Source: a virus
Taxonomy: Duplodnaviria > Caudoviricetes
Strand: one strand, 5' to 3'
DNA length: 64,000 bases
IMG/VR virus record: IMGVR_UViG_3300024493_000235
Span: 204,443-268,442 of that record
The position numbers and the translations under genes are program-made. The notes below the pieces were generated by a model. It searched no databases, was not told the origin of the DNA, and was given only the letters and a program-made list of their open reading frames with translations. This document shows positions 1,198-47,087 of the stretch, one piece after another. Positions within the stretch are counted from its first letter, which is position 1, and the number at the start of each line of letters is the position of its first letter.

Positions 1198-2271
1198 ATG
1201 TTAAGTCATTCCGAAGCCATAAGAGCCATGAGAGCTGAACTTGATAAATTCAAGGTATTAAAGCGATACCACGAAAAATCAGAAGATCATTGCAGGTGTC
1301 CTATATGCGGAGATTCGACAAAATCTCACAGAGTAGAACACTTATACATGAAACTCAAGAAAGACACTCATGACGATGCTGTTTACTTTTCATACCATTG
1401 TAAGTTGTGTGGTGCAAAAGCAAAGGTGTTTTCTGGAAAAGACATCAAAGCGTTTAAAATTAGAAATAAAGACCTTATAGAGTACATAGATAATACGGTT
1501 AAAAATCGTGGAAACTATGTACTAAAAAGTTCATATAATTACATCGGTAGGTCGCTACACAAGATTCCTATCGATTGCGATGTAACAGAAAAAATCGCAT
1601 ATATGCAACGAAGACTTGGAGACTGCAGAGTTGTACGAAATCCTGAAAAATTCAAAATTATCTACGATTTCGCATCATTCTTTAAAGAAAACTCGCTCCA
1701 AGTAAATACAGATTATGGAGAGATTTCTTATGTGAAGAAATTCCTTAGAGCTCTCCATGATAACTGTATCGGCTTTTTATCTTTCGATAACACATCAATT
1801 AATTTTCGTGATATCTCAAAAAATAATGTCATGGGAAAAAGATATATCCAATACAGGCTATATCCTGAAGCTACTTTAACAGTTGATGGTGCGAGCGTTT
1901 CATCGTTTTATACGATCCCAGGAGAGTTAAACTCTATGGCTCCAACTCTTAGTGCTGTTTTAGCCGAAGGAACATTTGATATCTTAAGGATATACTCCGA
2001 CTTCTATCCACAAGTGAAAAGAGACGATATTGTATTTGCATCAGTTGCAAATGCTCATGGATATTCAACTTTTTTAAAGAAATTCCTCGAATACGGGATT
2101 ATGTTTGATGATGTAACTATTTATTCAGACGATGATGTCCCTATAAAGAAATATAAAGAGTCTATAAGGCCCTTAATACCAGACGCAAAAATAACTATAC
2201 ATTATAATGCAGCTTCAAAGGATTATGGTGATAAACTTAAGCCTTTTGAAGACTCAACTTTCGCTATATAG
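1198..2271 (+). CDS. Phage DNA primase (Zn finger plus TOPRIM)
   Basis: CPICGDS...HCKLC zinc finger, and AEGTFD and SDDD TOPRIM motifs as in T4 gp61-type primases. Confidence 0.8.
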   Translation: MLSHSEAIRAMRAELDKFKVLKRYHEKSEDHCRCPICGDSTKSHRVEHLYMKLKKDTHDDAVYFSYHCKLCGAKAKVFSGKDIKAFKIRNKDLIEYIDNTVKNRGNYVLKSSYNYIGRSLHKIPIDCDVTEKIAYMQRRLGDCRVVRNPEKFKIIYDFASFFKENSLQVNTDYGEISYVKKFLRALHDNCIGFLSFDNTSINFRDISKNNVMGKRYIQYRLYPEATLTVDGASVSSFYTIPGELNSMAPTLSAVLAEGTFDILRIYSDFYPQVKRDDIVFASVANAHGYSTFLKKFLEYGIMFDDVTIYSDDDVPIKKYKESIRPLIPDAKITIHYNAASKDYGDKLKPFEDSTFAI

Positions 2272-2285
2272 GAGTATAATCCGCT

Positions 2286-3704
2286 ATGGAAGAAAAACTG
2301 CGCATAAAAAAGTTCGACCGTTTTCTTGACAATAATGAAATTGTCAAGTACGGGGATCAGTTAACTGTCTGTACATGTTATGACAGAACCAAAGGAGAGA
2401 AGCTGACTTCGGATATTATAACAGAATTCCTTGAAGAATTCGCGTATTCGAAGTATCATGCCTCCCTTCAAATTGCATACGTAATCCCCAATCATTTTGA
2501 TATCTCAGTCCCGATTACAATGAAAGAAAGGCTCGGCTGGTATTGTGAGCAAGACTCGTTAGGAAATCACTTCATCAAAGTACGATTCACCATGACAGAT
2601 GAACAGCACCGCCAGCAAATTGAAACATTTAGAAATTTCGGTGTCGATCTTAACATCCTACAACTCGGAGATAATGACGTTCTTGATATCGGAGAAATAA
2701 ATCCTGAATGTATCTTTAAGTTTACAATATCAAAGAACGCCATTTGGTGTATCAGGAGTGAACCGATAAAGATTTACAACGACGATGATAAAATTCCGCC
2801 TGAAGATGGGAACCTTATATCCCTTACTATGGAAAAATATCCGGATATTCAAAACCGTACATTTTCTCCAAATCAGGCTGGAATGATTTGTCTTTCTATC
2901 GTCACAGGAATGACCATATTTTCCGAAGAACATCTTGCGAGAGCACAAATAAAAGAAGAAGTGATTGACGAAGGTCATGTCACAATTCTTACCGATGACG
3001 ATTGCAAACTTCCCGATTTCTCTGTCGAGGAATTATACACCGATAATATCCCCGAAGATCAAAAAGAAGAAAGGGAGCAGCGTCTAAAAGAAATACAAAA
3101 AGAGGTATCACTAGCACAGAGACGAAAAAGTACATGGGAGAAGATTTTCTCATGTCCAAATCCGTTTATTCAAGAAATGCTTAACACTTGGATTACAACT
3201 CTTGAAAAGCCTCAGAATGACAATCAGATGCAAGTGTACTTAAGGGACTTTGAGAAATGGCTTATCGAGAAGAACTCACATGAAAAATTCATGAGCATTT
3301 TGAAAGCTGAAACAACCGATCAAAATCCCAACCTTGTTCAAAATATTGACTTTTCAAATCTTGTCATAACAGATGAACACCGGGAAGTGTATAATAAAAA
3401 GATAATCCCCTTAACAAAAATCTTTTCGCAGAAGATGGCTGATATAGGAAAAGAAATGGGTATCGAAGCAAATTGTGCTCAAGTTCCTGTAGAATATAGC
3501 GAAAGAATACAGCAAATACCAGAGCTTATTGAATATGAAAGATTAGCTTGGTTTTTAGCTCTTAACATAGCTTTCGCTAACGGACTTTTGAAAAAGGCTG
3601 ATGGCACATTATATGCGAAGGAAGAACTGGAAGGTAAATCTTTTGAGGAATTCCCGATTTTGAAGCATATCATTATGAAACTAAGTGACATGATGGAGTG
3701 CTAA
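2286..3704 (+). CDS. Hypothetical protein
   Basis: 472-aa ORF with AGGAG RBS. Confidence 0.75.
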   Translation: MEEKLRIKKFDRFLDNNEIVKYGDQLTVCTCYDRTKGEKLTSDIITEFLEEFAYSKYHASLQIAYVIPNHFDISVPITMKERLGWYCEQDSLGNHFIKVRFTMTDEQHRQQIETFRNFGVDLNILQLGDNDVLDIGEINPECIFKFTISKNAIWCIRSEPIKIYNDDDKIPPEDGNLISLTMEKYPDIQNRTFSPNQAGMICLSIVTGMTIFSEEHLARAQIKEEVIDEGHVTILTDDDCKLPDFSVEELYTDNIPEDQKEEREQRLKEIQKEVSLAQRRKSTWEKIFSCPNPFIQEMLNTWITTLEKPQNDNQMQVYLRDFEKWLIEKNSHEKFMSILKAETTDQNPNLVQNIDFSNLVITDEHREVYNKKIIPLTKIFSQKMADIGKEMGIEANCAQVPVEYSERIQQIPELIEYERLAWFLALNIAFANGLLKKADGTLYAKEELEGKSFEEFPILKHIIMKLSDMMEC

Positions 3705-3722
3705 CAAAACTATAGATTTTAT

Positions 3723-3750
3723 AACCCTGCGTATGCAGGGTTTATTTTAT
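3723..3750 (+). terminator. Terminator-like hairpin upstream of the uracil permease gene
   Basis: AACCCTGC-gtat-GCAGGGTT followed by TATTTTAT. Confidence 0.7.
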
Positions 3751-3766
3751 GTAAAGGTGGTTTATT

Positions 3767-4981
3767 ATGTTTTTTAGACCAGAAAGTGACGGCATCGCTA
3801 TTCAGAAGAAAATGGTGCTAGGTTTACAGCACACATTCACAATGTTCGGGGCTACGGTATTGGTTCCAATACTTACCGGATTAAATGTATCTGTTGCGCT
3901 TTTTATGGCTGGGGTATGTACAATTCTGTTTCACCTTATTAATCAGGGTAAAGTACCGATATTCCTCGGTTCCTCATTTGCGTATATTACTCCCATCATA
4001 ACTGTCGGATCTTTATTCGGGTTGCAATACGCACAAGGTGGCGTAGTGATTTCAGGCCTTGTATACGCGTTATTGGCATTAATCATTAAAGCATTCGGTG
4101 TTGAGAAGGTATTAAAATTCTTTCCACCAATAGTTACAGGTCCCATAATTGTGATCATAGGACTAACCCTTGCACCTGTTGCGGTATCCTCAGCATCGAA
4201 TGATTGGTTACTCGCTGCAATTAGTTTTATAATCGTACTTGTAATTGCAATTCTTACAAGAGGATTTATTAAAATGATTCCTGTACTTTGTGGCCTTGTT
4301 GGAGGATACATTGTTGCAGTATTGATGGGTAAAGTCGATTTTACTGCAGTAGGAGAAGCTGCATGGATTGGAATACCAGCTTTTACAATTGCAAAATTTA
4401 ATGCAAGTGCTGTACTACTTATAGTACCTGTAGCAATTGTAACCTTTGTTGAACACATTGGCGATATAATTGCTATCGGGACAGTTTGCAATAAAAACTT
4501 TGCGGAGGATCCAGGACTTCATCGGACTTTATTAGGCGACGGATTAATGACTTCGTTAAGCTCGATGTTTGGTGGCCCGGCGAATACAACTTACTCGGAA
4601 AACACTGGAGTAATAGCTTTGACAAAGGTTTTTGATCCATTTGTTATGCAAATTGCGGCGTGTTTTGCTATATTAATCAGTATGTGTCCAAAATTTGCCG
4701 CCGTAATAGCTTCAATTCCTGGTGGTGTCATTGGAGGAATTTCGATTGTGCTATTTGGCATGATTTCTGCTACTGGTATTCGTAGTATCGTTGATAATAA
4801 GGTTGATTTTTCGGCTCCTCGAAATTTATTCATCGCCGCCACGATCCTTGTAATTGGTCTCGGTGGTACCGGTATTCAAATCAATAATTCTCTCTCGATA
4901 TCTACAATGGCTCTTGCCGCTGTACTGGGGATTGTGTTAAATAAAGTACTTCCCCAAGTTAAGATTGACGAAAAAGGTTAA
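3767..4981 (+). CDS. uraA: Uracil permease, NCS2/NAT family (UraA/PyrP-like)
   Basis: GLQH, FLGSSFAYI, VEHIGD, LLGDG and PANTTYSENTGV NAT signature; many hydrophobic helices. Confidence 0.92.
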   Translation: MFFRPESDGIAIQKKMVLGLQHTFTMFGATVLVPILTGLNVSVALFMAGVCTILFHLINQGKVPIFLGSSFAYITPIITVGSLFGLQYAQGGVVISGLVYALLALIIKAFGVEKVLKFFPPIVTGPIIVIIGLTLAPVAVSSASNDWLLAAISFIIVLVIAILTRGFIKMIPVLCGLVGGYIVAVLMGKVDFTAVGEAAWIGIPAFTIAKFNASAVLLIVPVAIVTFVEHIGDIIAIGTVCNKNFAEDPGLHRTLLGDGLMTSLSSMFGGPANTTYSENTGVIALTKVFDPFVMQIAACFAILISMCPKFAAVIASIPGGVIGGISIVLFGMISATGIRSIVDNKVDFSAPRNLFIAATILVIGLGGTGIQINNSLSISTMALAAVLGIVLNKVLPQVKIDEKG

Positions 4982-4986
4982 TTAGT

Positions 4987-5021
4987 ACCTCTGGCCCGAT
5001 CGGGCCAGAGGTTATTTTTTT
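4987..5021 (+). terminator. Intrinsic terminator (perfect 26-bp palindrome)
   Basis: ACCTCTGGCCCGATCGGGCCAGAGGT followed by a T-tract. Confidence 0.8.
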
Positions 5022-11373: not shown

Positions 11374-11420
11374 GTTGTTCTAAAAAATAGTGAAAAATTT
11401 CTATAAAAAAGAAGGAAAAT

Positions 11421-12227
11421 ATGAAAATTCCTAATGTAAAGGTATTTAAATGTCCTATTTGCAAGAGATCGTTCTCATCAAAGCAAGCTGTGTACACCCA
11501 TATGTATAAAGAACACTCCGATGAAATACCCGACGGCATGAGTGCCGCACAGTACGCTTTTAATCTTCGTAATAATAAAGAATACGGTCTTTGTGTCCAA
11601 TGCAAAGTTGGAAAAACACCTTGGAACGAAGAAGCCGAAAGATATGATAGATTCTGCTGTGAAGAATGCAAAAACGCATATGTCGCAGAAGCTAAAAGAC
11701 GAATGGTTGCTAAGTATGGGAAAGAGCATCTTTTAGATGATCCAGATCATCAACAGAAGATGATGAATAACAGATCAATCTCAGGTGTTTATGTTTTTGA
11801 TACAGATAAAATCGCCGTAAAGTACAACAGCCAGTATGAATATGATTTTTTGCGTCATCTTAATTTAGGACATGGATGGCTTGGAAAAGATATCGTCCAA
11901 TGTCCGTTTGCATTTGAGTATGTACACGACTGTAAGAAAAAGTTATATATTCCAGATTATTGGATTATATCTTTGAACGCCGTTATCGAAATTAAGTCGT
12001 ATCAGAATAAGCACCATAAGATTCTTGAAGTTGATGTCGAGATGGAAAAATTAAAAGACGCCGTGATGGAAGAACAAACACAATATAACTACATTAAAAT
12101 TGTAGATGAAAAATACGTGTCTTTTTCTTTTTTTGTAAAACTCATTCAAGATTTATACTGGGATTGTAAAGATCCCGACATTCAACCTGAAGTTGCTGGA
12201 ATTAAAATAATTCCGCCAAGGAGTTAG
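11421..12227 (+). CDS. Zn-finger plus PD-(D/E)xK (TnsA-like) nuclease
   Basis: C2H2 finger CPIC...HMYKEH; YNSQYE...YIPDY...IEIK catalytic pattern. Confidence 0.7.
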   Translation: MKIPNVKVFKCPICKRSFSSKQAVYTHMYKEHSDEIPDGMSAAQYAFNLRNNKEYGLCVQCKVGKTPWNEEAERYDRFCCEECKNAYVAEAKRRMVAKYGKEHLLDDPDHQQKMMNNRSISGVYVFDTDKIAVKYNSQYEYDFLRHLNLGHGWLGKDIVQCPFAFEYVHDCKKKLYIPDYWIISLNAVIEIKSYQNKHHKILEVDVEMEKLKDAVMEEQTQYNYIKIVDEKYVSFSFFVKLIQDLYWDCKDPDIQPEVAGIKIIPPRS

Positions 12228-12228
12228 C

Positions 12229-12906
12229 ATGCTGACAGTAATAACAAAAAATCTCTTTAAAAAGCCAAAAAAAATAACACTTGCAAGAGCCATTCAAATA
12301 ATTGAAATGGAAGACCCGTATATCACAACAGATTGGCATCTTGGAAAGTTTATTAACAAACAACAGACAGAAGCTTCTTATCAGGAATATATCGAAAAGA
12401 CAAAGAAAATGATTGACAGACTTCAAAAAGCTGTAAAACCTGGAAAACCGATGTTGTGTCTCGGAGATATTACAGAAGAAGAGATGTATGACGAAGATTT
12501 GATTAAATGGCTTTACAACACCGTTGTTACGATACATGGAAGTCCAAAAATTTTAATAAAAGGAAACAACGATATTTTCGATGATGAATTTTATTATAAG
12601 CTCGGATTTGAATATGTGACAAAAAGAAATATCGTATCCGATAAACTTCGAATAGTTTTTTCTCATGAGCCTGTGTCTATAATAGACATGAAACTCTCCG
12701 AAAAGGATTGGCTTAATTTGCACGGACACAGTCACGGATCCGGTAAATTATACAACATGCAACCAGGGGATGCTAATTGTCATTTGGATGCTTTTCCGGA
12801 TTACAATTGGCAAGGCGTTCAAAAACTCTCGTACTATCTTAGCATGTTTCGCGCACATCCTGAAAAGTATAAGTGCGACGTTATTTATAAATACGGGTGG
12901 AATTAA
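12229..12906 (+). CDS. Calcineurin-like metallophosphoesterase
   Basis: DWHLG, LGD, GNND, SHEP and HGHSH motifs. Confidence 0.85.
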   Translation: MLTVITKNLFKKPKKITLARAIQIIEMEDPYITTDWHLGKFINKQQTEASYQEYIEKTKKMIDRLQKAVKPGKPMLCLGDITEEEMYDEDLIKWLYNTVVTIHGSPKILIKGNNDIFDDEFYYKLGFEYVTKRNIVSDKLRIVFSHEPVSIIDMKLSEKDWLNLHGHSHGSGKLYNMQPGDANCHLDAFPDYNWQGVQKLSYYLSMFRAHPEKYKCDVIYKYGWN

Positions 12907-12917
12907 AGGAGACACAC

Positions 12918-14081
12918 ATGAAAAGCTTGGATGATTATATTCCAAAAATCCCTATGGGTCTTGATGACAACGTTATTGATGTAGAAGACAATATTTCATA
13001 CGAGATTGTCAACGCCCTTTCTGAATTACATTGTACAACATCGGATTTGTTACAAACAGAATCCGAACTGGTTTTAAGATATATTTCAGACGAATATGGT
13101 ATATCGTTTGAAAATGTCGATGCGGATATCGGCATACAAATAGGGATAAAGCCTTCAAGAGATCCGCATACAGGAACACCGAATGTCCTTGATGTCAAAA
13201 TCAATTCAAGGGTCGGATTCTTTGAGTCTTTGGCAAAAAAGATGCGGGATTTGGCGCTACGAGTTGCAACCGCTATTCGTAACTTTTTTGTATCAATCCA
13301 TCATTTTTTTCAATCCAAAATTAGCAAAGTGGACAATATGCTTTTACATGCTAATTTTTCTATCGTTGATAAATATTACAGCGATACATCAAAATCTTGT
13401 AAGATAAAACTTACAAAGTATATGATAAATGATCCTATTGCTGAATACAAAAAAGATCAAGACGTATTGCGTCTTGCAGTTCCAAGATTAAAAGATGCAA
13501 TTATTACCCTTGTTGATCATATCGAAAATCCTATTACACTGCAAGAAAAAACTGGAAGTAAAAGTGATATGTACGTCACATACCAAAGAGACAGGGATGA
13601 AATCCAAACTCTATTTGATGAAATCTTTGGAAAGCTTGCAGGGCCTCACGTTAATCTCGAAATGATTCATGAAATGAATATCGCACGTGTTATTCGGCTT
13701 AAATACTTTGGAGATAAGAAAACCTCTGATATATTTGAAGTTCGAGATGTTATTCCAAATAAAGAAGTATTTGATACCATAACTTCTGATAATGCGTATC
13801 ATTCATTTAAGAATTTATTCAAACAATCCGATGAATGTCTTGAAATCGCATTGAAAGTCGCTAACAGGTTTAACAAAAGCCTCAGGATGATGTATAATTC
13901 TCCTTCGACTGTATATACAGAAATACAAGGAGTTATACTTAAATTTCGAGGTCTTCTTACAGCTTTATTGTACACGAATATCGCATATTGGGAATTATAT
14001 TTTTCAATACGACAGAATGCTTTGGCAGCCCTTCGTGCAATCATAAGAGACGATGTTGAAAAACAAGTTTCAAACAAATAA
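12918..14081 (+). CDS. Hypothetical protein, possibly an inner virion protein
   Basis: 387-aa helical ORF, AAGGAG RBS. Confidence 0.65.
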   Translation: MKSLDDYIPKIPMGLDDNVIDVEDNISYEIVNALSELHCTTSDLLQTESELVLRYISDEYGISFENVDADIGIQIGIKPSRDPHTGTPNVLDVKINSRVGFFESLAKKMRDLALRVATAIRNFFVSIHHFFQSKISKVDNMLLHANFSIVDKYYSDTSKSCKIKLTKYMINDPIAEYKKDQDVLRLAVPRLKDAIITLVDHIENPITLQEKTGSKSDMYVTYQRDRDEIQTLFDEIFGKLAGPHVNLEMIHEMNIARVIRLKYFGDKKTSDIFEVRDVIPNKEVFDTITSDNAYHSFKNLFKQSDECLEIALKVANRFNKSLRMMYNSPSTVYTEIQGVILKFRGLLTALLYTNIAYWELYFSIRQNALAALRAIIRDDVEKQVSNK

Positions 14082-14093
14082 AGACAAAGAAAA

Positions 14094-14126
14094 TAATGCA
14101 GGGTGGCTAACAGCCACCCTGCATTA
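14094..14126. terminator. Strong terminator hairpin
   Basis: TAATGCAGGGTGGCT-aac-AGCCACCCTGCATTA, 15-bp stem. Confidence 0.8.
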
Positions 14127-14203
14127 AAGAGGTGATAATCTCTCCATATTATATCTCCCCAGGCCCAACCAACACATATGATTTAGGAGAGTCTATATAT
14201 GGC

Positions 14204-14645
14204 AAAAATAAAAGCGGCAGGGGCAATCTGGCCCCTGCCGCCCGGCGGATCTGCAGCCCGATTCGGAATATAAATCCCGGACCGGTTTTCTTTAGTCTGC
14301 TAGATTGCGCCACTCTGAACCGCCGCGATTAAGCGGCAGTTAATAAAAATGACATGCAGGGCTTAGCATTGGCATGGCGTACCACATTATAATAGAGGCT
14401 TGCCGCCGCGGGAACAAGCCCGTGGCGGTGCATACTATAATGCGGGTTTTTAATCAGCGCCGGTTAGACGGGGTAACGGTTTTATCCATAATCCGCGGTA
14501 GTCGCCTTTGCATTTATCGCCCTACTGGGATGCCTTTTCCCGGATATTCTTTGGGAAGCGCGGCAGCTTTCCGCGCGACCTTTATCCCGGATCGCCGTTG
14601 CTAGCAAACGACAAGGCATTTTACATGGAACATGTCATCTTCACT
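14204..14645 (-). ncRNA. Large GC-rich structured RNA of unknown class
   Basis: Class I promoter motif at 14652-14661, terminator at 14204-14241, many stems with G-U pairs favouring the minus strand, no minus-strand ORF of 60 aa or more. Confidence 0.7.
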
Positions 14646-14688
14646 ACATAGATGATATATACGTAAAAACATTTTTGTTTCACGTATA

Positions 14689-15123
14689 TTATCCTGAAGC
14701 GTAACCGTTATTGAAAAACCAATTTGATATTGTACAAGCTATGATTGGACTTGTTTCATGGTTTATAAAGTTTACAATAATCGGTGTACACCTTGGAACA
14801 ATCGGATGCTCGATTTTCTTCGATTCATAAATGTGGATACGCATAGATTCATGCACGATTTTACTCGGCGTTGTAAGCTGTATCAAGACTGTACAACCTA
14901 TAAGTCTTGATTTGTCAAGATCACTTATTTCAGGTTTCATGATCTTTTTTGTCACGACTCTTGTTTCATTCGAGTATCTTGTCATTGCGTATATAGTTGT
15001 TTCTCCCATTTGAAAAGCTTCGTTTGGGATATTAGTAATACGATCCGCCAAGTGTTTGACTGGATCCGGCTTATAAAAGTCGTGACTTGTAAGAATTTTG
15101 CATTGTGTCATTATTGGGTTCAT
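14689..15123 (-). CDS. Hypothetical protein
   Basis: Last gene of an overlapping operon. Confidence 0.65.
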   Translation of the reverse strand: MNPIMTQCKILTSHDFYKPDPVKHLADRITNIPNEAFQMGETTIYAMTRYSNETRVVTKKIMKPEISDLDKSRLIGCTVLIQLTTPSKIVHESMRIHIYESKKIEHPIVPRCTPIIVNFINHETSPIIACTISNWFFNNGYASG

Positions 15124-15893
15124 TGTCTTATATACCCTCGTATATCCTTGATATCGTGAAAGATATTTTCACGAGTTAGGAAATCTTTAGGAAGAATATC
15201 CTGCCAGCATGATTGTTCTGCTGTTAAACATCTTATATCATTAGGAGATATTTTCCATCCTCCGTAAGTTCCATCTACATACAGTGGATTTATCATCATT
15301 TCCATGTCGCTTATAAGCACGTTCTCCGCAATTTCTCTTTTTGTTAGATCTGTTTCGGGATCGCCGTCAGCATCGTATAACGCATAATACATCACCATAG
15401 GGCATGATGCTATCATAAACGATTCATGTACAGCATTAAAGATTGCCTTACGTGCATACATAGAGAATACCAAAGCTTTATTTTGGTTATCTTGAAGTTT
15501 TGTTCCGCTTGAGTATCCTGTCAATTTAAGAAGTGCGAATGCGCTACAAAAGACTGCATAATATGCCTCTTGGATGAACGAGCATTTGAACGGTGTATGT
15601 ATAACTTTATTGTATCTCTCTTCAAATGTTGAGCTCACTACATTTCGACGTAACTGTATGGGGTTTATGTATATAGCTCCATGTTTACTGTCTTCAAGGT
15701 TGTTATTTGCATATGGAGATATTATAACAGGTTCAAGGTGTTGGTATTCCGATACGTCTCTTGTAATTTTTCTGTCCATGAGCATGTATATGGCGTTTGA
15801 GGCTGCCGTCACATACTGCTCCCAAAGTTTTGCTTGCTGAGAGTGCAATATTTCCATACGTTTTCTCACATATTCATTTATGCTATAACGCAT
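15120..15893 (-). CDS. Hypothetical protein, paralog family A (distant member)
   Basis: IISPY and EAYYAVF motifs shared with neighbours. Confidence 0.7.
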   Translation of the reverse strand: MRYSINEYVRKRMEILHSQQAKLWEQYVTAASNAIYMLMDRKITRDVSEYQHLEPVIISPYANNNLEDSKHGAIYINPIQLRRNVVSSTFEERYNKVIHTPFKCSFIQEAYYAVFCSAFALLKLTGYSSGTKLQDNQNKALVFSMYARKAIFNAVHESFMIASCPMVMYYALYDADGDPETDLTKREIAENVLISDMEMMINPLYVDGTYGGWKISPNDIRCLTAEQSCWQDILPKDFLTRENIFHDIKDIRGYIRQ

Positions 15894-16596
15894 AATTAGA
15901 ATCTATGGCGTCAGTTGACCTAGGTCTTGCCATCATTTTTAACTCCTCGATATATCCAGACATTTTATCGTCTAATACATCAAACTGTGTGGGATTATCT
16001 CTACATGCATATTTTAATTTTGTGAAATGCTCAATCCAAAAATCGTATATGATAAACAATGAAGGCTGGTACCCTTCTGCTAAGAAGTTATTAAATGATC
16101 CTCCTGAGAACATCGGTCGCAAGATATCGTTTTCTATAAGAGAGAAGATGGCCTGCGATTTATCTCCAACTTGAGGGTTAAGATATATCTGGGGCACTAC
16201 AGAGTTTAAGAATTGATAGATGTATGCTTTCACTTCATGTATGAAGAACGTGATGCGATTATAACTTAAATCGTTAACTTCTGACATCTCAGAACACCAA
16301 GCAGCACATAACATCGCAAAATATGCCTTCTGTAAGTTTGTCGCATTTTTATTTTTATCTCTTATCGAAAGATACGTGCTTTTATAGTTCCTTCCTGTCG
16401 ATATTCTGTACAAATACGTTTTAGGAATATGCGATAACCCACCAAAACTCGATCCGTCATACTGAAGAAACGGAGATTCTATTATTCCTGTTACAACGAT
16501 ACTTCCGCCTAAATCAAGCATCACTTTACTATCAATGCACATGTACAATACTTTTGTAAGTTTTTCCATTATAGAATGGATCATCATTTGGTCCAT
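15883..16596 (-). CDS. Hypothetical protein, paralog family A (distant member)
   Basis: IIESPF and KAYFAMLCAAW motifs; class I promoter and AGGAGG RBS. Confidence 0.75.
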   Translation of the reverse strand: MDQMMIHSIMEKLTKVLYMCIDSKVMLDLGGSIVVTGIIESPFLQYDGSSFGGLSHIPKTYLYRISTGRNYKSTYLSIRDKNKNATNLQKAYFAMLCAAWCSEMSEVNDLSYNRITFFIHEVKAYIYQFLNSVVPQIYLNPQVGDKSQAIFSLIENDILRPMFSGGSFNNFLAEGYQPSLFIIYDFWIEHFTKLKYACRDNPTQFDVLDDKMSGYIEELKMMARPRSTDAIDSNYAL

Positions 16597-16679
16597 ACAA
16601 GTGCCTCCTTTATAGTGATATTATATATAGTTATAACAAAAAATAAACATCACGGGATTTATAGAAATTTCCCGTGATG

Positions 16680-17348
16680 TTAGTATGGAATATCGGTAGT
16701 TGGATTCTCATCTAGCACTTCTTTCATTCCTATACCAAAGGATCCGTAAATTCTTGAAAAACAGAGAATTTGATCGAACAATTCTTCTATAAACGAAGCT
16801 TGATCACAATGCTGCCCATACATTGAAAGAAGGGATTCGACTAAGAGATCCGCATTCGCGTTTAGACTATGCATACACCATGCAAGTTTGTTTCCATACT
16901 CCTTAATATTAGGGTGTATTTCAAACCATGCTTGTAGTATTGCAATATAGTATATCATTGCAGCGTACGCATAAGCTTGCGCATCAAGATCTGTTCCATG
17001 TACTTGCTCATACGAGTGCATAAAGTTGTCGAATATGTTTTTCATCCTTGTTTCAAAATCATCCGTGAAGGAAAGTCTTTGTATCGCTACGAACGTTGTG
17101 TTTAAAACAGGATTTTCTTTTAACAATTTTTCATGGAGTATTATATTCGGATCATTAATAACTACGTCATTCGAACTCGGCACAACAAAACTTTCATAAG
17201 GGTTTTCAACCATTTGAAGATTGAACACCTTCGAATGATTTCTCTCTTTAGAGAATTTTGTTTTAATGTTATACCGTGTATCATTTAGGATAAAGTTTGT
17301 GATGTGTTCTACGACATATTGTTTATTGATCGTGGAATACGTCTCCAT
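16680..17348 (-). CDS. Hypothetical protein, paralog family A
   Basis: MVENPY and AYAAMIYYIAILQAW motifs. Confidence 0.7.
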   Translation of the reverse strand: METYSTINKQYVVEHITNFILNDTRYNIKTKFSKERNHSKVFNLQMVENPYESFVVPSSNDVVINDPNIILHEKLLKENPVLNTTFVAIQRLSFTDDFETRMKNIFDNFMHSYEQVHGTDLDAQAYAYAAMIYYIAILQAWFEIHPNIKEYGNKLAWCMHSLNANADLLVESLLSMYGQHCDQASFIEELFDQILCFSRIYGSFGIGMKEVLDENPTTDIPY

Positions 17349-18099
17349 ATCTATACCTTCCTTCACAGTAATAATCGACTAATTCTCTCATGTCGATAGG
17401 ATTTGGATATACATGAACCATGTGTCCGGATTTTTGTACCGGATCCCAAATGCATCGAAAGATGATATCTTCGATATTTTCGTTTACAAAATCCGATGTT
17501 GCATAAGGTAAATTTCGCCACAAAAGCTCTTCATATAAGCCTTTTATTATTGCGAAATGTGTAGCATGCTCATACATGTCTTTGTGATCTGAAAGTAGTT
17601 TATCAATCGGCGGAGATCCCGGTTGTGTATGTAGCTGTGTCCATGCGAGAACTACACATGTGTAAAAACAGAATGCGTAGTATATCGAATCATCATATTT
17701 TGTCTTTTCCAAATTCTCAATTAAGAGATTATGAAAATTGATGAGGCCCAATTTTGCCTTATTCAGATGCGGTACGGGAATGTTAAACAATACGTTATCT
17801 TCAATGATGCTATTCCACCAGTCACGTACTTCTATACTACGATGCCTATTAACTCCAGGTGGATAGAATTCGTTGAAGTTTATAAAAGGAGATCGTATTA
17901 CTGCACTTGAATACATTCCACATGTATCTTGAGTCCTATCTCCTCTTGAAAGAAAACCGGTACATACGACATCATGTAATGCATTACACACTATACCAGT
18001 ATATTCACATATAATATCGTTAGAATAGCCGTCAAATAAAAGATAATCTGAAAATTCTTCAATGTAAAGTGCATTGTGCACCAAACTGATGTCTATCAT
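17323..18099 (-). CDS. Hypothetical protein, paralog family A
   Basis: Clear paralog of 18113 (PVPHLNKAKLG vs PITHLNRAKFG; IWDP vs IWNP). Confidence 0.8.
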   Translation of the reverse strand: MIDISLVHNALYIEEFSDYLLFDGYSNDIICEYTGIVCNALHDVVCTGFLSRGDRTQDTCGMYSSAVIRSPFINFNEFYPPGVNRHRSIEVRDWWNSIIEDNVLFNIPVPHLNKAKLGLINFHNLLIENLEKTKYDDSIYYAFCFYTCVVLAWTQLHTQPGSPPIDKLLSDHKDMYEHATHFAIIKGLYEELLWRNLPYATSDFVNENIEDIIFRCIWDPVQKSGHMVHVYPNPIDMRELVDYYCEGRYRYGDVFHDQ

Positions 18100-40409: not shown

Positions 40410-40439
40410 CCTAAAGTTGTAATATAAAAGCGATATCCA

Positions 40440-46918: not shown

Positions 46919-46948
46919 TAATTCGGGGCCAGTTTAGGCCCCGAATTA
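46919..46948 (+). terminator. Terminator hairpin
   Basis: TAATTCGGGGCC-agttta-GGCCCCGAATTA. Confidence 0.75.
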
Positions 46949-47087
46949 TATATCTATGATCCGTAACAATGAAAATTATGATTATATATAATATATATGA
47001 GAAATAAGAAATTAAGATTATACTGTTTGGAATCGTCGATTCGTGCAGGTAACAAGTATTTCTTAGAGTATCAAAGGATAAAAAGAT
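46946..47087 (+). promoter_or_regulatory. Conserved promoter plus structured leader element, copy B
   Basis: Ungapped match to 5027-5159 with compensatory stem changes. Confidence 0.85.

Follow-up and report, generated by a model that had tools for sequence, protein, structure and literature searches.

Structurally known large phage RNAs are few, GOLLD (RF02032) and ROOL (RF03087) being the examples, and no function has been established for any of them; the non-coding RNAs of jumbo phages receive a single sentence in a review from 2026 (PMC13282480). GOLLD and ROOL are phage-encoded, large, multi-branched and abundant, and they multimerize via kissing loops, some of them palindromic; palindromic kissing loops bridge the multimers of OLE and GOLLD (10.1101/2024.12.08.627333). 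ROOL has no known protein partner. The jumbo phage PA5oct, which uses the host polymerase, makes ncRNA002, an ORF-free and lineage-restricted transcript of 451 nt that is abundant early and represents 4.65% of the phage reads (Lood et al. 2020, PMC7318152). Other phage RNAs, the Racr RNAs and viral sgRNAs, are decoys of host immunity (10.64898/2026.06.01.729453), and 6S RNA (RF00013) is an abundant RNA with a rod-like central domain that carries a bubble. Here we describe an RNA that in its behavior resembles GOLLD, ROOL, and PA5oct ncRNA002, abundant orphan RNAs found in large phages, and belongs to none of their families.

The RNA gene lies in a stretch of 64,000 nucleotides (the window) at the end of a phage record of 268,442 bp, whose genome is 91% complete. 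The phage is an uncultured AR9/phiR1-37-like jumbo phage of 268 kb from the termite gut; it encodes its own multisubunit RNA polymerase, whose beta subunit has its closest counterparts in Bacillus phages AR9/PBS1 (36%) and Yersinia phage phiR1-37 (31%), and the identical sequence is present in a termite-gut metagenome run. Its nearest relatives, at 65–71% on one conserved neighbor gene, are likewise uncultured phages of the gut, and JGI metagenomes are the source of most of them. A single tRNA-Cys (window position 40439) is its only tRNA and lies 26 kb from the RNA gene, whereas GOLLD and ROOL sit near phage tRNA islands. The phage carries two host-derived metabolic genes, a uracil/xanthine permease of the NCS2 type (window 3767–4981, plus strand) and a probable SAICAR synthetase (L038:18129–18899, plus strand), the nearest proteins to both being from Clostridia at 60–65%. 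As regards the host, these captured genes appear to lean to Clostridia, at 60–65% only, and Spirochaetes and Fibrobacteres were the dominant groups in the likely source colony, which was almost devoid of Firmicutes (PMC7264248).

A first-pass annotation, made from the sequence alone, had proposed a GC-rich and independently transcribed structured RNA of unknown class, of roughly 440 nt. We have confirmed that this stretch is a real, expressed non-coding RNA gene on the minus strand, with a transcription unit of its own and a product of about 441 nt (14205–14645), the 3′ end of which is placed by its terminator. The GC content is 0.52–0.56 over positions 14200–14600 compared with 0.37 genome-wide, and the intergenic gap that holds the gene has the highest value (0.48) among the 32 gaps of at least 220 nt in the genome, so the GC-rich island stands. 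The longest minus-strand ORFs have 45 and 54 aa, in agreement with the earlier statement that none reaches 60 aa. The RNA strand has no Shine–Dalgarno-like word and no frame with phage codon usage, and two ORFs on the plus strand, with 66 and 76 aa, have neither phage codon usage nor a ribosome-binding site (RBS); the RNA is untranslated. A separate plus-strand element (window 14186–14273) consists of a good RBS and a 24-codon ORF with a phage-like codon score of 0.25, antisense to the terminator of the RNA. Its RBS is part of an imperfect inverted repeat, the opposite arm of which provides an RBS on the minus strand, with a 7-codon ORF near 14148.

The RNA gene is preceded on the minus strand by a promoter of the early, virion RNA polymerase type (TATATATCAT, 14652–14661), followed by 6 nt and then by an A at 14645. 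The motif TATATAT(A/C)AT occurs in 66 copies in the genome compared with about 8 expected, mostly just upstream of an RBS and ATG, and an A is found at the equivalent +1 position in 45 of the 66. In AR9 the consensus of the early promoters used by the virion polymerase is AAATATATATTAT-(6N)-G+1 (PMC5312081), and we set the +1 position at 14645 because the promoter fits this consensus with its 6-nt spacing. A promoter of this type also sets the RNA apart from PA5oct ncRNA002, whose phage depends on the host polymerase. The first-pass annotation had located the promoter correctly and had described it as lying within an inverted repeat, of which it overlaps one arm only; this repeat (14657–14689) immediately follows the 144-aa gene's stop codon and may be an operator or form a hairpin at the 3′ end of the upstream mRNA. 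At the other end there is an intrinsic terminator with a U-tract (14205–14243, minus strand), into which an RNA contig extends as far as 14231; its stem, earlier given as 11 bp, has 13 bp when G-U pairs are included. Behind it, the ancestral terminator of the upstream operon persists at 14126–14094, with a U-tract on the minus strand only. The spacer of the insertion, between the two terminators (14127–14204), contains the imperfect inverted repeat and the plus-strand RBS and ATG (14199) of the 24-codon ORF. The RNA unit thus ends in two terminators, with no gene downstream to regulate in cis.

Three metatranscriptome runs from one study contain the stretch, and their contigs, when aligned to positions 11400–17400, tile 14645–14231, with gaps in the coverage of individual runs. 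Contig depth on the element was 316 in run X3, 1795 in X4, and 1657–5000 in X2, compared with 2–8 for the flanking genes in X4 and 0 in the other two; a DNA run covered the same region in one contig at a flat depth of 23.5. We claim that the RNA exceeds its flanking genes by some hundreds of times or more, a relative figure only, taken from assembled contigs of one study, in which depth ranks genes poorly and the value of 5000 looks like a ceiling; in this sense the abundance of GOLLD and ROOL is shared. The query that retrieved the RNA runs spanned parts of both flanking genes, so the selection of the runs fails to explain the depth contrast, and DNA carry-over would give a signal extending beyond the element, unlike the contigs observed. 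Furthermore, the X3 contig ends at 14645 and is followed by three bases and the Illumina adapter, which on the minus strand reads as the read-1 primer, three extra bases, and the RNA from +1. In SMARTer Stranded libraries, read 1 is the sense strand and opens with three template-switch bases, so that one contig end supports the minus strand as well as the start that was predicted. The three RNA runs are probably those of Calusinska et al. (2020), judging from the year, habitat, and sample number, and that work used the SMARTer Stranded kit and a NextSeq instrument on three samples (PMC7264248). The RNA contigs confined to the element, the 5′ end at the predicted +1, and a depth hundreds to thousands of times that of the flanks, together with the lack of an Rfam match, bear out the large, independently transcribed minus-strand RNA of the first-pass annotation.

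A contig from run X2 (record 11) with the appearance of an 82%-identical homolog was rejected as such: it is the same RNA with C read as A throughout, as both flanks and 13 of 13 differences fit, and it shows that in this run the RNA extends unbroken between about 14628 and 14431. Artefact contigs of this kind (window 14431–14628) may mimic diverged homologs of very abundant RNAs.

The predicted fold of the minus strand has a minimum free energy (MFE) of −181 kcal/mol (z −6.15, with 0 of 100 shuffles as good), compared with a z of −4.52 for the plus strand; when the terminator is left out, the values are −5.1 and −2.9, respectively. This fold is a thermodynamic prediction from a single sequence without homologs and hence without covariation support. 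All the helices previously listed are found at their places in the MFE fold, with mean pair probabilities of 0.81–1.00. The closing stem, described before as 10 bp, exists and is longer, a helix (P1) of 14–16 bp that starts at nucleotide +1 (14645–14630 with 14357–14342; pair probability 0.96). P1 encloses a 304-nt domain, composed of a three-way junction (14619–14530; pair probabilities 0.77–1.00) and a 170-nt irregular rod (14525–14356). The junction is formed by a helix (14619–14613/14536–14530), a hairpin (14612–14594), and a long arm ending in the GCGCGG/CCGCGC hairpin. The loop of the hairpin (14606–14599) is the palindrome UGCUAGCA, with a predicted self-duplex of −11.8 kcal/mol that is reached by 2 of 150 shuffles, for a feature picked out after the fact among many tried; this palindromic loop is all that the RNA has to set beside the kissing loops of GOLLD and ROOL.

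The central rod, also predicted without covariation, has a z of −3.3 when folded alone and pair probabilities mostly of 0.89–1.00. It comprises a 7-bp helix (14525–14519/14362–14356), two 3-bp helices flanking a tandem A-A loop, a side hairpin, an A-rich and asymmetric bubble (12 vs. 2 nt), a 13-bp helix (14445–14433/14394–14382), and a terminal GC hairpin. The 3′ domain (14341–14244; z −3.45, pair probabilities mostly 0.96–0.99) consists of a 9-bp hairpin (14341–14318) and an interrupted long hairpin (14311–14244). Among the 161 unpaired nucleotides of the RNA 69 are A (43%), and the single-stranded stretches are short and A-rich. Two further features were unremarkable: 7-mer triple repeats also turn up in 58 of 300 shuffles, and a possible 6-bp pseudoknot between a loop and the bubble (14455–14450 with 14332–14327) is found in 27 of 150.

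The comparison with Rfam gave no match at the gathering threshold and nothing above noise at E values up to 10, and the same is true of the GOLLD, ROOL, OLE, raiA, and HEARO covariance models. In addition to lacking a sequence or model match, the RNA differs from GOLLD and ROOL in its length (441 nt compared with about 600–800 nt) and in being one example, without covariation or a recognized pseudoknot network or multimer. It also has no sequence similarity to PA5oct ncRNA002 in a blastn search of phage records. A tmRNA was rejected, as the tRNA-like domain (G3-U70, T arm, and CCA end) is lacking; ARAGORN found none at the default, 95% or 90% threshold and gave unidentified tags only below these, and no SmpB gene was found in the 91%-complete genome. 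A tag-like frame does end in LLTAA-stop in the loop of the 14341–14318 hairpin, with a resume context that fits a two-codon tag only, and we estimate that an ending of the Ala-Ala-stop type would occur by chance about one time in ten. Retron or DRT RNAs, omegaRNAs, and Y RNAs were rejected because the 91%-complete genome has no PF00078 reverse transcriptase, no TnpB, and no linked Ro60/TROVE gene, respectively; the search for IscB was uninformative, its control being silent. Pfam scans of about 217 ORFs named no RNA-partner family. Regarding viral sgRNAs and tracrRNAs, scaffold-like words exist at 14320–14278, but the 3′ part takes on an sgRNA-like fold only when forced, at a cost of 12.9 kcal/mol and with a C-A mismatch. 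Like the Racr RNAs and viral sgRNAs, the RNA is an accessory phage RNA that could sequester a host protein; it is also about five times longer than these, matches no tracrRNA or CRISPR repeat, and no anti-CRISPR genes were identified in its vicinity.

Four syntenic relatives (L002, L004, L005, and L015) keep homologs of both flanking genes, with 30–39% identity, and have at the same junction a terminator of 36–40 bp alone, compared with the 607-bp gap found here. Because these relatives have the terminator only, we consider the RNA gene a lineage-specific promoter–RNA–terminator cassette, which most simply would have arisen by insertion. No homolog of the RNA was found by blastn against phage and plasmid records or against about 800 Clostridia genomes, nor with model R1 on 150 of these. 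Five DNA patterns used in IMG/VR gave only chance matches when screened by blastn or with models R1/R2, and one pattern each in JGI metagenomes and GTDB gave no homolog. Single-sequence covariance models were equally negative on the phage's own genome, 13 loci of relatives, AR9, phiR1-37, SA1, and LPJP1. These searches are weak for diverged RNAs and, for the nearest relatives, covered loci rather than whole genomes.

Other structured regions were observed in the same genome and lineage. A large one, with a closing stem of about 32 bp, follows the tubulin gene (L008:1458–1890; genome 188958–189390, plus strand); a shared family with it found no support, since the alignment score of 30 is reached by 16 of 300 shuffles and the models missed it. 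In a relative (L005:3935–4345), the early promoter motif (3935) is followed by a hairpin of 17 perfect base pairs and by some 270 nt that are structured and richer in GC, up to a terminator; z is about −14 for the region, and its inner part folds better on the opposite strand, where a 64-aa ORF is called. It is a candidate for a second RNA cassette of the lineage, dissimilar to the RNA at 14205–14645. A leader hairpin with a conserved GTT-type loop and compensatory changes is repeated behind early promoters (window 46919–47030; genome 87275, 88561, 107490, and 151859), and the RNA has no similarity to this ten-copy element. An ORF-free stretch with a terminator hairpin at its end is found at L009:321–565 (genome about 140020–140264, minus strand). 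Finally, the 257-aa and 237-aa genes at window 15120–16596 (minus strand) match each other's counterparts in relatives and appear, from these matches, to be tandem paralogs of an unannotated family conserved in the phage group.

With a confidence a little short of even, we propose that the product of the cassette is a stable early RNA that acts in trans as a folded decoy or scaffold for a protein, possibly as a dimer formed via its palindromic loop, in the manner of GOLLD and ROOL. According to this, the cassette, situated at the junction between converging operons, would be transcribed from its early promoter by the virion RNA polymerase, as the parallel with AR9 suggests. The 5′ end would be buried in the 14–16-bp helix and the 3′ end would be the terminator hairpin, and this arrangement may confer resistance to decay and so account for the accumulation of the RNA. 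The RNA would then act as a folded particle, by shape rather than by base pairing, perhaps as a homodimer joined through the loop at 14606–14599, and would titrate or scaffold a protein, most likely a host RNA-binding or defense protein early in infection. We prefer a decoy or scaffold because the RNA is early, abundant, accessory, and untranslated and has nothing in cis to regulate, and its absence at the site in the four syntenic relatives fits an accessory conflict gene. The strong multi-branched fold with A-rich unpaired linkers, and the lack of complementarity to the phage genome above chance, also favor this function; against it, there is no homolog that would reveal selection on the fold, and no partner protein or partner family was found in the phage. 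We regard as doubtful, if worth stating, the wider proposal that it is the first representative of a new jumbo-phage RNA class, early, made by the virion polymerase and self-assembling, that would neutralize a host defense or transcription factor or perform catalysis, and would be one of several unrelated 400-nt cassettes gained and lost like accessory genes.

The RNA could instead be a stable but dispensable or selfish transcript, a mobile or captured remnant behind a strong early promoter that accumulates only through its good folding, which we judge unlikely. It is a singleton in all the collections searched, is missing at the site in relatives, and has a GC content far above that of the genome, and ROOL itself is abundant yet non-essential in one strain (10.1101/2024.12.08.627333). 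However, the early promoter is exactly of the phage type, P1 starts precisely at +1, the stems are intact with high pair probabilities, and neither a transposase nor a reverse transcriptase or intron core lies in the vicinity.

An undescribed type of ribozyme or RNA-only catalyst, whose core would be the irregular rod, seems to us distinctly improbable, although the purine-rich irregular internal loops, the multi-way junctions, and the failure to find a protein partner would suit it. No Rfam ribozyme was matched at E values up to 10, and no HDV-like/theta core (a nested double pseudoknot with a catalytic C) or hammerhead core (CUGANGA-GAAA) was found on either strand with our own descriptors, used without a positive control. 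The RNA contigs tile without joints, though contigs would hide rare products. As for a group I intron, there is no Rfam match, the 5′ word resembling P7 that lies near 14300 lacks its partner, no splice joint exists in the RNA contigs, and the flanking genes are separate and intact in relatives.

There is small probability, in our opinion, of an antisense or base-pairing regulator. It would silence, similarly to a type I toxin–antitoxin system, the 24-codon ORF at 14199 and the read-through that reaches the plus strand here from the converging gene of 394 aa, or it would pair with host mRNAs. The ORF has its good RBS and phage-like codon score (0.25), and the U-tract of the ancestral terminator on the minus strand only makes plus-strand read-through possible. 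Nevertheless, the RNA stops before the RBS of the ORF, the predicted peptide has no membrane helix, and 370 nt of folded RNA would be superfluous for such a role. Exact matches and complementarity between the RNA and the remaining phage genome do not exceed chance, no antisense target was found in the phage, and its single-stranded stretches offer little besides short A-rich segments.

A 6S-like decoy of the host RNA polymerase would benefit a phage equipped with polymerases of its own, and the 170-nt rod with its bubble, the early and abundant expression, and the multisubunit RNA polymerase of the phage are all in its favor. We consider it very improbable: no 6S covariance model matched at E values up to 10, and the bubble (12 vs. 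2 nt) is asymmetric and placed inside a branched RNA more than twice the length of 6S RNA. A conformational switch, one of the functions suggested in the first-pass annotation, or a DNA-level element (an origin or packaging site) is largely refuted and has hardly any probability left, since the two exclusive pairings near 14397–14430 do exist, as do inverted repeats in the DNA, but forcing the second pairing costs 9.5 kcal/mol, and other alternatives more, which is no balanced switch, nothing downstream is left to regulate, and the element is heavily transcribed, with the transcribed strand folding better.

The weight of the finding is limited by its being a singleton from an uncultured phage. 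On the other hand, the exact boundaries of the RNA, the evidence for its expression in gut samples, and a size suited to SHAPE and cryo-EM make in vitro work feasible at once. If it proved to be a decoy or an RNA-only assembly, it would add an RNA-based accessory strategy to the phages that carry their own polymerases.
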